Below, piece after piece: positions 50,723-53,749 of a stretch of 64,000 nucleotides of DNA. This DNA comes from Curvularia clavata. Lineage: Eukaryota. The stretch is from contig CP089274.1 of NCBI GenBank assembly GCA_023920165.1, forward strand, positions 310,001-374,000, given 5' to 3'. How positions within the stretch are numbered: the stretch's first letter is position 1; each line of letters starts with the position of its first letter. The position numbers and the translations under genes are program-made. The notes under the pieces are model-generated. The model made no database searches and was not told the origin of the DNA. It worked only from the letters and a program-made list of their open reading frames with translations.

Positions 50723-52321
50723 TTAGTACTCTTCACCAAGCCTGGGCTTGCCTCCCTTCCAGTCGTCCCTCTCGTAGTACCTAAAAACAAGATCATATCC
50801 ATCCAAGTCGTGCACAATGCGATCAACACGACGGTAGCCAGGAATGACCTCCATCCTGTCAGCCTTGTGCGAGTTCTTCAATGGCAGCTCATCAGCGGTA
50901 GGCTTGGCTTCGAAGAGAGTGACGCTGAACCTGCCAGGCTTGAAAATTCCCACCACATGCTGCACAATATCGGCAGTCTCGCGGCCGGTCTGGCGGGCAG
51001 GCACGTTGGTCTCGAAAGAAGCGTAGGAGCACTGTGGTTCGGGGGTGACGTGAACGGTAAAGTAGTGCGTGGCGTCAGAGCCCTTCTTGGATCCATTGGG
51101 AGCACCACCTGGAGCAGGAATGACGCCGTTGGCAGAAAATCCGCATGGGGTGAAGAGATAAGCGTCGATACGGGCATCAGGATACTTGGTGGTGGGATAG
51201 ACGTCGGCCAGACCGCAGTGCTCAGAAACGACGGTACCAAGTGTGTGACCTTCGGTGGTCAGCTCCTCGGGGAAGGTGAGCTCCTCGTCAGAGTTGAAGC
51301 CGGAGTGGTCAGAAGAGGTCTGCTCGAAAACGTCGAAGCTGTCATCGGAGGTGTGTGTGTTGGCGGCCGAGTTGAGAACGGTGGAGCCACCAAGACTCTC
51401 CGTGTGGCCATTCTCCTCGGAAATGGTACCCAGAGATTGAATGGCGCTCTTACGAGCTTCACGAACCCTCTGGAGGTAGCGACCTTCCGCAACCGCACTT
51501 GCGTCCTCTAGATAGAACTGACGGGCGTTCTTCTCATCGAGGTCGGTCATCAGAACCTCCAAAGTCTCGTCTTCCTCCTCGTCGGTGGGCTGCTCACGCA
51601 ACAGGCGCTGGGGGTGGCTGATAAACTTGGTCTCGGTGTCAGGCTCCAGCCTCTCCTCGCCTGGGCTGGGAGGTGGTGTGAGGCTGGTATCAGGACCAGT
51701 GATATAGAGGTACCAGTGCTCGCCATTCATCTTGCCAATCATGTAGGCGCTGCCACCCTTGAAGCGGTCGTCGAGGTAGCGGACTTCCTCTCGCCAGCTG
51801 CGGTGGGGACCGCGCTGCTGTTCGGGGTGGAGGAAGTTCTTCCTGCTATAGAAAACGCGGTATGGCGTGGCAGCTGGGGCGACGCCGGATGCCTTTGGCG
51901 CGACATATGGGAAACCGGCTCCAGCAGCAATTTCCAACATGCGAGTCAGACCCCAAAGCAAAGTTGTGGTACCACAAGTCTTGAGGACAACCTTGTGGGG
52001 GAAGACGAACATGCTCGACTCGGACAGGAGGTAGGCATCGACATGCTCGGACTCAATGACGGAGAGAACCTTGCAGTTGACCAGATCAAGCATGTCCTTC
52101 CATATTTCAGCCGACACCTTCTTCAAGCCGAGCGGACCGGCCTGGCCAGGTAGTTCAGTAGCAGAGGGGCTGAACCATACTTCCAAGAGCTTCTCGGGAC
52201 CCTCGAATGAGTTTGTGGAATCGAGATCGATAGTAGCCTCCTTGTTGATGGTCAAGTGAGGGGTGCCAATGTGCGACGAAGGCGAGGCAGTGTAGTGCTG
52301 AGGAATCTCGGTAGCGACCAT
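50723..52321 (-). CDS. SPE2: S-adenosylmethionine decarboxylase proenzyme
   Basis: FEGPEKLLEVWF, YLLSESSMFV (autocleavage/pyruvoyl site), KTCGTT, FTPCGFSANG, TVHVTPE..SYASFE. Confidence 0.97.
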   Translation of the reverse strand: MVATEIPQHYTASPSSHIGTPHLTINKEATIDLDSTNSFEGPEKLLEVWFSPSATELPGQAGPLGLKKVSAEIWKDMLDLVNCKVLSVIESEHVDAYLLSESSMFVFPHKVVLKTCGTTTLLWGLTRMLEIAAGAGFPYVAPKASGVAPAATPYRVFYSRKNFLHPEQQRGPHRSWREEVRYLDDRFKGGSAYMIGKMNGEHWYLYITGPDTSLTPPPSPGEERLEPDTETKFISHPQRLLREQPTDEEEDETLEVLMTDLDEKNARQFYLEDASAVAEGRYLQRVREARKSAIQSLGTISEENGHTESLGGSTVLNSAANTHTSDDSFDVFEQTSSDHSGFNSDEELTFPEELTTEGHTLGTVVSEHCGLADVYPTTKYPDARIDAYLFTPCGFSANGVIPAPGGAPNGSKKGSDATHYFTVHVTPEPQCSYASFETNVPARQTGRETADIVQHVVGIFKPGRFSVTLFEAKPTADELPLKNSHKADRMEVIPGYRRVDRIVHDLDGYDLVFRYYERDDWKGGKPRLGEEY

Positions 52322-53100
52322 CTCTTGACGGTATAGCTGGCGTGCGCAGCGAATTTATCTGGTTGGAAGCGGTTTGCTGGATTGGATAGGAGCAAGCTTG
52401 AAGTTTGGGCTAGCTAGGAAGCTGTGTGCAGCACAACCTCGCTCAGACAAGCAATGCGGTGCTCGCCTGAGAAGAATTGGCCCACGGGTCGCGAAGAGTA
52501 GGCGAGGCTGGCGTGTGCCAGCAGCAGAGGACGTGGGAATGTAGAACCGACCGTAGTCGATGTTAGGGAGGTCGCGCGTTGAGGGGGATAAACGAGGCCT
52601 TTTGCCGGGAAATGGTGGCAGCCGATGTGGTCCTCGCAATACCAGATTCCGATACCCTGGGCAAGTATCGGGTCCAGCAGACGAGGAGATCTGCTTCAAA
52701 GACTAAGGAGAAATGGGTGGTGGAGTGGGAGAGGGGGCGTGGCTGGTGTTATCGAGGCCTGGAGGGGGGACAAGGTCAGCGTTGTGCTCTGGGGTGTCTT
52801 GTTGATAGCAGACAGCTTTTAAATGAGACAAGACTGACTTTGCAGGCTTGGACAGAAAGCGTACGAGGTCCTCGCGACGCATAGAAGAGCCGAAGCAGGC
52901 GACGGCGACGGCGTTGGGCACTGACTGTGTATGTGTGGTCAGTCGCCAATCTCTTTTTTTCTACCCAAGCTGCGGGGGTGACGAGACGGAGCGTGGCGGG
53001 ATTGTGGTAGACGACGGAGAATAGGAGAGGAGCTGGCAAGAGATACGTACTGTGAGCAGTGGAGCAAGCAGACGAGCAAGCAAAATTGATTGTGGGGGTT
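52322..53100 (-). promoter_or_regulatory. Long spliced 5' leader of SPE2 with two introns (52925..53050, 52759..52864) and overlapping uORFs
   Basis: Donors GTACGT and GTACGC, CTGAC branch points and CAG acceptors; pyrimidine-rich leader with only one AUG (52882). Confidence 0.7.
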
Positions 53101-53749
53101 GTTGTTGTTGGGGGCGATGTCGTGGAAGCTTCACGCGACAGGCATTTTTGACGAGTGCGGTGTTTTTCCTTGCAAACGTCACCGCCCAACGCAAAAGTGG
53201 CTGGAGCGTCCCGCCAACGGCCGACGGGCTTGGGGCCCGACGCAGCCTTTCTCGATTCGATTCCGACATGTGCCCATTCTATACTTAGCCCACAAGACGT
53301 CATGCAACAGGTACCAATTCCTTTCCCGCCGCCTCCATTCGTGCATCGCTTCATCTAATCGCGCCGTGCATCTGCCAGCCCATCTCGCGTCCGTCTTCAC
53401 ACCCTTGGCACCGCTGTCGATGCTGCCCCCGTTTCCGAGACTTTGACGGTCACAGAGTCTGCTGAGAGTCATGTGATGTTCCATGAGGGCGGAGAAATGC
53501 CTCAGACAGAACCACGACCCAAACGCGCTCCCGACAGGACCACCTCTGTATCACGCCTGGCGGGGGTATGCCAGCCTCTCTGCTGCAATGCCACCGCCCC
53601 AAATGACTCCAAAGGACCGGCATACTCCCGGCGACCAGGACCACGCATCTCCACATGTACATGCTAGCCCTATTCCAGCCTCCTGCGCCTCCATCTTAGT
53701 CTCTTCCCAGCTATAGCAAACATACTGCAGCCCACATATACCTATAGCC

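Follow-up and report, generated by a model that had tools for sequence, protein, structure and literature searches.

S-adenosylmethionine decarboxylase (AdoMetDC) commits S-adenosylmethionine to polyamine synthesis, and mammals and plants offer textbook examples of its control by upstream open reading frames (uORFs). Among polyamine-related genes, the homologues of AZIN1 and ODC carry another type of upstream element, the uCC, which starts at a non-AUG codon and has Pro-Pro near its end. For filamentous fungi, Ivanov, Atkins and Michael described uORFs in the AdoMetDC leaders of Pezizomycotina (2010, NAR 38:353, PMC2811004), and according to the text of their article the last residue but one of AdoMetDC uORFs is proline, vertebrates and the sea squirt being the exceptions. 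Later, Li and Breaker (2017, BMC Genomics 18:785, PMC5640933) reported that alternative splicing removes uORFs from the leader of the Neurospora crassa gene SDC (NCU01083), and that the SDC motif, a small hairpin located upstream of the SDC ORF and having a stem of 11 bp, represses a reporter in Neurospora. As that article presents it, only the hairpin was mutated, and uORF-mediated regulation is said to remain to be shown (PMC5640933).

The window analysed here is a stretch of 64,000 nucleotides of Curvularia clavata (contig CP089274.1), and all positions given below are counted within it. The protein encoded by the main ORF (Table 1) matches the Pfam family SAM_decarbox (PF01536) over residues 37-517 with an E-value of 3e-117, so that the name SPE2/AdoMetDC given to this gene is correct. 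Its mRNA leader is at least 620 nt long and consists of three exons. The main ATG stands in a strong context (GAG ATG G), and between it and position 53145 the leader holds a single ATG, at 52882. The only other leader ATG is that at 53145, which opens the short reading MPVA-stop 245 nt upstream on the spliced mRNA; it is not conserved in the five closest relatives in the alignment, whose AdoMetDC N-termini are 93-97% identical to that of the window.

The splicing of this leader was followed in contigs of four runs (X1, X5, X9 and X11) from four studies, aligned to 52200..53500. The runs were typed as RNA by guess, none of them being on record as RNA, and their contigs were taken as spliced RNA because they lack the canonical GT..AG intervals. 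Positions 52772..52815 are without cover in all four runs and 52948..53035 in three, so that the evidence consists only of joints across these gaps; contigs of this kind show the presence of a form and not the ratio between isoforms, and neither rare splice forms nor the 5′ end can be read from them. Two leader introns had been proposed in the initial annotation, and both GT..AG intervals are indeed in the DNA. The first was found as proposed, its joint being present in three of the four runs (the fourth, X11, has no cover there), and its 5′ site is kept in the five closest relatives in the alignment. The second was only half right: its 3′ site at 52759 is the one used in 4/4 runs, but all four join 52839 to 52758 (joint 52757/8>52838/9) and thereby use the 5′ site GTCAGT at 52838 instead of GTACGC at 52864, for which no joint is listed in any of the four runs, although contigs can drop rare variants. 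This intron 2 holds a CTGAC branch-like site.

A single contig, from X5 only, bears the joint 52757/8>53050/1, which removes 292 nt: the 5′ site of intron 1 is joined to the 3′ site of intron 2, and the exon of 86 nt between them is lost. A form retaining intron 2 is shown by none of the contigs aligned from the four runs; such retention would place the uORF AUG in frame with the tail SHAPSPTPPPISP-stop, giving a product of 59 aa. As for other contigs of the region, one of 167 nt from X1 passes unspliced through intron 1, an X1 contig continues from leader exon 1 into the upstream gene, and a second, separate X5 contig covers 53255 upward. The start of transcription is to be expected between 53255 and 53150.

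Read along the mRNA thus spliced, the ATG at 52882 opens a frame of 17 codons, MRREDLVRFLSKPAKPR, terminated by TAA at 52751..52749, with 427 nt between this stop and the main ATG. The part in exon 2 encodes MRREDLVRFLSKPA and the first two bases of a Lys codon, and exon 3 supplies the rest. The uAUG is preceded by TCT, that is, by a pyrimidine at -3. The peptide fits the pattern M-x-x-x-D-L-[LV]-R-[FY]-L-S-K-P-A-K-P-R and ends in K-P-R-stop, proline being therefore penultimate. It is identical to the rows printed for Pyrenophora, Phaeosphaeria and Cochliobolus in Supplementary Figure 1A of PMC2811004, and a comparison by eye of the uORF RNA with these three rows gave two synonymous differences (CUG/CUC and GCG/GCA). 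The three rows belong to Pleosporales, and the match by itself would probably assign the window to a Dothideomycete of that kind.

Judging from its sequence, the element is almost certainly an ordinary member of the conserved AdoMetDC uORF family of Pezizomycotina published in 2010. It shares with the entries of that article the host gene, the AUG start, the 17 codons, the peptide and the penultimate proline, and its distance to the main ORF is similar to the two printed there, 405 and 441 b (PMC2811004). The article displays mRNA sequences, and the words "intron" or "splic-" are absent from its main text and supplement 1, whereas the genomic copy is seen here to be split by an intron, the element being otherwise the same. 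The initial annotation had surmised that comparative surveys might already have detected the element, and so they had. The Neurospora SDC leader is likewise similar, as described in PMC5640933: it has uORFs and a 3′ splice site that the forms share and that falls within the conserved uORF, the uORFs being kept in one spliced form and deprived of their start in another, and upstream of the main ORF it has a hairpin whose stem measures about 11 bp. The uORF-less form is reached differently, by a second, upstream 5′ site in Neurospora and by the skipping of an exon between two introns in the window.

Table 1. Features of the SPE2 leader and main ORF in the window of 64,000 nucleotides
Feature	Position	Strand	Description
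Leader exon 1	53051..53150	minus	cover to 53150 in X5, to 53080 in X9
Leader intron 1	53050..52925	minus	126 nt, GTACGT..CAG, joint 52924>53051
Leader exon 2	52924..52839	minus	86 nt, cassette exon, bears the uORF AUG
uORF part 1	52882..52839	minus	ATG CGT CGC GAG GAC CTC GTA CGC TTT CTG TCC AAG CCT GCA AA
GTACGC, 5′ splice site supposed in the initial annotation	52864..52859	minus	codons Val7-Arg8 of the uORF
Intron 2	52838..52759	minus	80 nt, GTCAGT..CAG, phase 2 in uORF codon 15
uORF part 2	52758..52749	minus	G CCT CGA TAA; completes Lys15, adds Pro16, Arg17 and stop
C-rich spacer past the uORF stop	52748..52703	minus	contains the tail SHAPSPTPPPISP-stop of the initially proposed frame; poorly conserved
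Block A	52697..52625	minus	AAGCAGAT..CCTCGTCTGCTGGA-CCCGATAC..GTATCGG..GCGAGGAC; conserved
Block B	52527..52504	minus	small hairpin GCTGGC-N4-GCCAGC; conserved
Block C, extended hairpin	52485..52426	minus	inner stem 52471..52442, loop CCGCA; outer stem starts GTGGGCC
Main ORF, S-adenosylmethionine decarboxylase proenzyme	52321..50723	minus	532 aa, single exon

A wider comparison was made with a degenerate pattern over codons 5-15, which retrieved 110 loci on metagenome contigs, 80 with flanks of 1500 nt and 30 with flanks of 300 nt. The conservation of codons 5-15 is forced by the pattern in these 110 loci, and for these codons only the published, independent alignment counts. An ATG is found exactly 12 nt 5′ of the pattern in 110/110 loci, and a GT follows straight after codon 14 2/3 in 107 of them; the remaining three (L023, L041 and L066) continue with G-CCN-MGN-TAA, as spliced cDNA-type contigs would. 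The position of the intron is the same in 107/107 genomic-type loci. At the other end, a 3′ AG followed by [AG]-CCN/TAT-Arg-stop is present in 105/107 of the loci with GT, the other two ending 32 and 35 nt past the 5′ site. A tail of the type Pro-Arg-stop or Tyr-Arg-stop occurs in 105/105 loci having at least 100 nt of sequence there, while the same motif was met in 0/105 reverse complements and 19/2100 shuffles. Among the 108 readable loci the tail reads PAKPR-stop in 106 and PAKYR-stop in two, its Arg codon being CGA, AGA or AGG and its stop TAA or TAG. In the 87 loci of the first pass the intron that splits the uORF measures 48-265 nt (median 100), and in 68 of these 87 the 5′ splice site is of the type GTGAGT or GTAAGT and brings a stop directly behind Lys15, which would make a product of 15 codons if the intron were retained.

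Furthermore, a tblastn search with the protein of the window as query placed an AdoMetDC N-terminus downstream of the uORF in 72 loci. There, the gap from the uORF stop to the main ATG is 315-531 nt long (median 408) and is free of any ATG in 63 of the 72. The base at -3 of the uAUG is a pyrimidine in all 82 distinct loci (T in 72, C in 10), and around the main AUG the -3 base is a purine in 56/56 and the +4 base G in 53/56. The peptides of the loci fall into types (MSRK.., MSPK.., MSTK.., MTAI.., MRRE..) that match entries printed in PMC2811004 for Eurotiomycetes, Leotiomycetes, Sordariomycetes and Dothideomycetes. Since four printed classes are matched in this way, the position of the intron is probably common to the subphylum, as judged from peptide types and not from the names of the organisms.

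Across 61 distinct leaders exon 3 contains strongly conserved blocks, the first of which comprises the end of the uORF and CACC.GCYAC, and the middle one of which ends in CCTCCCTAAC. Past the uORF this exon is not coding, stops being present in all frames in nearly all of the 61 leaders; a conserved long non-AUG ORF was considered here and discarded, a stop-free frame occurring in 0, 1 and 1 of the 61 leaders for the three frames. In block A, 40 sequences aligned on anchors (of 60 loci, 18 were left out for want of these, and duplicate segments were then removed) show a nearly invariant inner hairpin of 7 bp, with one pair changed on both sides; its outer stems are predicted in single-sequence folds only. 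When RNAalifold was applied to the global alignment of exon 3, the small hairpin of block B alone was recovered.

The inner stem of block C has 11 bp and a variable twelfth, with GCA invariant in the loop. The GTGGGCC anchor is present in 52 of the 61 leaders, nine being left out, and 43 non-redundant sequences were compared over a structure of 25 pairs: 91.9% of the cells are paired, vs 39-51% when partners are slid by 1-3 columns, and six pairs, amounting to 21 cells, are changed on both sides. Among 500 shuffles none reached the observed pairing and one reached the covariation score. This hairpin is probably the published SDC motif, to go by the verbal description of the latter; a scan of 52000..53600 against Rfam, with E up to 10, returned no SDC motif match and only a chance match of 16 bits to a viral pseudoknot. 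A hairpin of some kind is found in most lineages at 35-60 nt upstream of the uAUG as well, and the window is without one because of the difference of about 120 nt that sets it apart from its relatives.

We propose, with a probability of roughly 0.8, that the leader is explained by the 17-codon uORF together with leaky scanning, polyamine-enhanced stalling and further layers of splicing and hairpins. Most scanning ribosomes would leak past the weak uAUG and initiate at the strong main AUG; those that translate the uORF would be held by the nascent peptide at Lys-Pro-Arg-stop, and more so at high polyamines, and the held ribosomes would block or queue their followers, so that less AdoMetDC would be made. 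Two more layers bear on this leader: exon 2 can be skipped, giving an mRNA devoid of the uORF, and conserved RNA hairpins stand in the stretch that separates the uORF from the main AUG, one of them being probably the SDC motif, which others showed to repress translation. Leaky scanning and polyamine-enhanced arrest are carried over from what PMC2811004 summarises on mammals and plants. By this analogy, stalling where the uORF terminates seems somewhat probable, and we hold it with less assurance than the scheme as a whole. In work on AZIN1, polyamines have reportedly been proposed to hinder the elongation or termination that eIF5A assists at ends containing proline, and queued ribosomes are said to have been proposed to raise initiation at a weak upstream start. 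Our literature searches found no experiment on a fungal AdoMetDC uORF peptide.

The two systems from which the analogy is drawn resemble the fungal one only in part. The MAGDIS element of mammalian AMD1 is, according to PMC2811004, a peptide-dependent uORF of an AdoMetDC leader at which termination stalls in a polyamine-sensitive manner; it differs in having 6 codons, in lacking a penultimate proline and any sequence similarity, and in lying 14 nt from the cap, whereas over 140 nt separate the fungal uORF from the 5′ end. Plant AdoMetDC, as summarised in the same article, has a conserved uORF peptide with a penultimate proline (..PS-stop), and its main ORF is repressed at high polyamines. In plants, however, an overlapping pair of tiny and small uORFs is found, the small one having 48-55 codons, while the window has a single uORF of 17 codons and no overlapping partner.

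A quite different upstream frame had been put forward in the initial annotation: an AUG-less one, begun at a near-cognate codon in exon 1, Arg-rich in exon 2, about 55 codons long and ending in PPPISP-stop, which was thought to be a polyamine-sensing stalling peptide. It was modelled on the uCC of AZIN1 and ODC, where a polyamine gene has an upstream frame that is rich in Pro and has no AUG. In outline the proposal was right, since the SPE2 leader is spliced and does carry a conserved peptide-coding upstream frame of the polyamine-linked kind; it is the particular frame that was wrong. Under the splicing then assumed, this frame is open in the DNA and reads as written down to TAG at 52705..52703, and it does lack an AUG, as was claimed, but the AUG at 52882, in another frame, was overlooked. 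With the observed junction the frame passes instead into another frame of exon 3, ...ASITPATPPLPLHHPFLLSL-stop, and ends ...HHPFLLSL-stop. Its exon-1 part reaches ...SLDNTSHAPSPTPPPISP-stop in the exon-skipped isoform of X5, where the two are in frame. Openness is in itself no more than chance would give: in 5000 shuffles of this stretch of 43% C, a given frame stayed free of stops in 36% and at least one of the frames in 76%. The supposed 5′ splice site falls on codons of the real uORF, and a GT is present at its position in only 33/110 loci, those having Val for Leu. Moreover, the Arg-rich and Pro-rich stretches lack conservation even among the five closest relatives in the alignment. The SHAPSPTPPPISP-stop stretch, which provides the PPPISP-stop end, shows the lowest conservation within exon 3 across the 61 distinct leaders, and against those five relatives most of its codons are substituted and indels of 6, 2 and 1 bases occur, not all of them multiples of three; in the Arg-rich stretch all five carry about 120 extra bases that are absent from the window, and around the uORF this frame stays open for as few as 2 or as many as 115 codons, depending on the locus. 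The hallmarks of a uCC, namely a non-AUG start that is conserved and a peptide that is conserved in its frame, were looked for in the window and its relatives and were not found. The element that is present starts with AUG, has 17 codons, is not Arg-rich, lies in another frame and ends in Pro-Arg-stop, whereas the mRNA, spliced as observed, does not contain the proposed frame. We consider that frame as good as discounted.

Two other readings were weighed. According to one of them, the uORF would be a barrier or isoform marker whose sequence is indifferent, control being exerted mainly by RNA structures of the leader and by the choice between uORF-containing and exon-skipped mRNAs. The Neurospora data speak in its favour, as mutations of the hairpin raise the reporter and compensatory changes restore repression (PMC5640933), and so do the conserved blocks of exon 3, with the pairing and two-sided changes of block C, and the exon skipping in run X5. 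Yet a mere barrier would need neither the exact length nor the Pro-Arg-stop end nor the uniformly weak AUG context, and from class to class 13 of the 17 residues stay the same although third positions and the codon family used for Arg differ, which makes this reading unlikely as a full account; it is not mutually exclusive with peptide stalling. The other reading, that the bases around 52882..52839 are conserved for splicing, as part of the definition of a cassette exon, and encode no functional peptide, draws on the fact that the conserved stretch adjoins a conserved 5′ splice site and belongs to an exon that is alternatively skipped. It is very improbable: the bases that vary are synonymous ones, there is conservation of the ATG, of the reading frame, of the stop and of the tail carried by the following exon, and splice signals have no need of an in-frame Pro-Arg-stop two codons into that exon.

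Beyond the preferred scheme of a leaky, stalling 17-codon uORF with splicing and hairpin layers, a bolder idea may be considered, namely that the phase-2 intron between the body of the uORF and its Pro-Arg-stop is a conserved regulatory device across Pezizomycotina, and that the choice of splice form sets the output of AdoMetDC. We regard this as doubtful. The complete stalling peptide would then be encoded by the fully spliced mRNA only, skipping of the cassette exon would yield a derepressed mRNA without the uORF, and retention of the intron would leave, in most species, a harmless uORF of 15 codons. Such a choice might respond to polyamines, and an exon-junction complex deposited inside the uORF might take part.

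With regard to what was already established, the uORF, its host gene, the peptide and the penultimate proline have been known since 2010, and the alternative splicing that removes the uORF start and the repressing hairpin have been known for Neurospora since 2017. Literature searches for later work on fungal uORFs brought nothing beyond PMC2811004 and PMC5640933, and AdoMetDC is not treated in the accessible text of the non-AUG paper published in mBio in 2017. These searches likewise returned no paper reporting that across the whole group an intron divides the uORF in phase 2 at the same place, none reporting that an in-frame stop is usually provided by the 5′ site, and none reporting that the context of the uAUG is uniformly weak. 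The additions made here to a known element are therefore modest ones: the intron that splits the uORF in every genomic locus examined, and further conserved RNA blocks in the leader.

An intron inside a uORF can hide it from tracks of open reading frames and mislead readers of raw DNA. The fungal AdoMetDC uORF has been catalogued, yet it is undissected, and the window brings no new entry to the catalogue. What the comparison does is to sharpen the targets for tests in fungi: an AUG whose context is weak in 82/82 loci, a Pro-Arg-stop placed on a separate exon, an exon with the uORF start that can be skipped, and an AUG-free, highly conserved spacer of 300-500 nt with at least one covarying hairpin.

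Upstream of the SPE2 leader lies another gene on the minus strand, whose contigs extend down to about 53255 in X5, one of four sequencing runs available as contigs and labelled RNA by guess. In another of these runs, X1, this gene and the leader are merged into a single 3574-nt contig; therefore, the two transcripts overlap or lie at most about 100 nt apart. Directly upstream of the covered mRNA, a conserved block (GGCGGTGACGT .. AAAACACCGCACTCGT.AAAAAT) that includes a TGACGT core may constitute an SPE2 promoter element. Among the closest related metagenome loci, it is kept in L067, L015, L014 and L068 (in L068 only from 53176 down), while the aligned stretch of L040 begins further downstream. 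Near the probable mRNA 5′ end there is also a tiny ORF, ATG-CCT-GTC-GCG-TGA (MPVA-stop). The position of its ATG is occupied by ATC in four of the five closest relatives, i.e., those with aligned sequence there, which L040 does not reach, and this argues that the ORF is probably of no consequence, or located upstream of the transcription start.

Features of the SPE2 leader and its upstream region (window coordinates)
Feature	Position
Upstream gene, contigs	53255..53500 and beyond
Conserved upstream block	53186..53140
Tiny ORF	53145..53131
Unspliced X1 contig	52899..53063
Exon 2 upstream of the uORF	52924..52883
Spacer, uORF stop to main AUG	52322..52748
Leader block, first	52697..52625
Leader block, second	52617..52560

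A 167-nt contig of run X1 is unspliced across intron 1. Relative to the window, this contig has one substitution and two extra bases (TG) behind 52925; it may derive from a transcript of a slightly divergent allele or strain that kept the intron, or from DNA carry-over.

About 120 bases that all five closest relatives carry in the part of exon 2 preceding the uORF are missing from the window, as seen in alignment A1 (columns 331-453) of the window with L040, L067, L015, L068 and L014. Within them lies a hairpin, CTGC-nTA-GGCnnn..nnnGCC-n-GCAG, and most lineages carry hairpins in this interval, of unrelated sequence. Regarding the uORF itself, its tail reads Lys-Tyr-Arg-stop in place of Lys-Pro-Arg-stop in two loci, L055 and L085, which are exceptions to the penultimate-proline rule provided that the predicted 3′ splice site is correct. 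The 5′ site of the uORF intron is GTGAGT or GTAAGT in 68 of the 87 related loci, so that unspliced RNA would stop the uORF directly after Lys15 (AAG TGA/TAA). The corresponding site in the window is GTCAGT, and retention would yield a 59-aa product ending at the TAG (52705..52703) of the frame proposed in the initial annotation.

Further downstream, two leader blocks are very highly conserved, being nearly invariant between fungal classes. In single-sequence folds, these blocks are predicted to form nested stems, with CCTCG/CGAGG enclosing CCGATAC/GTATCGG; covariation is not demonstrable in them because the inner hairpin is nearly without variation and the outer arms are poorly aligned. From the uORF stop to the main AUG, a spacer of 315-531 nt in 72 related loci, ATG is absent in 63 of these loci and in the window, and this strong depletion points to scanning or reinitiation over the entire spacer.
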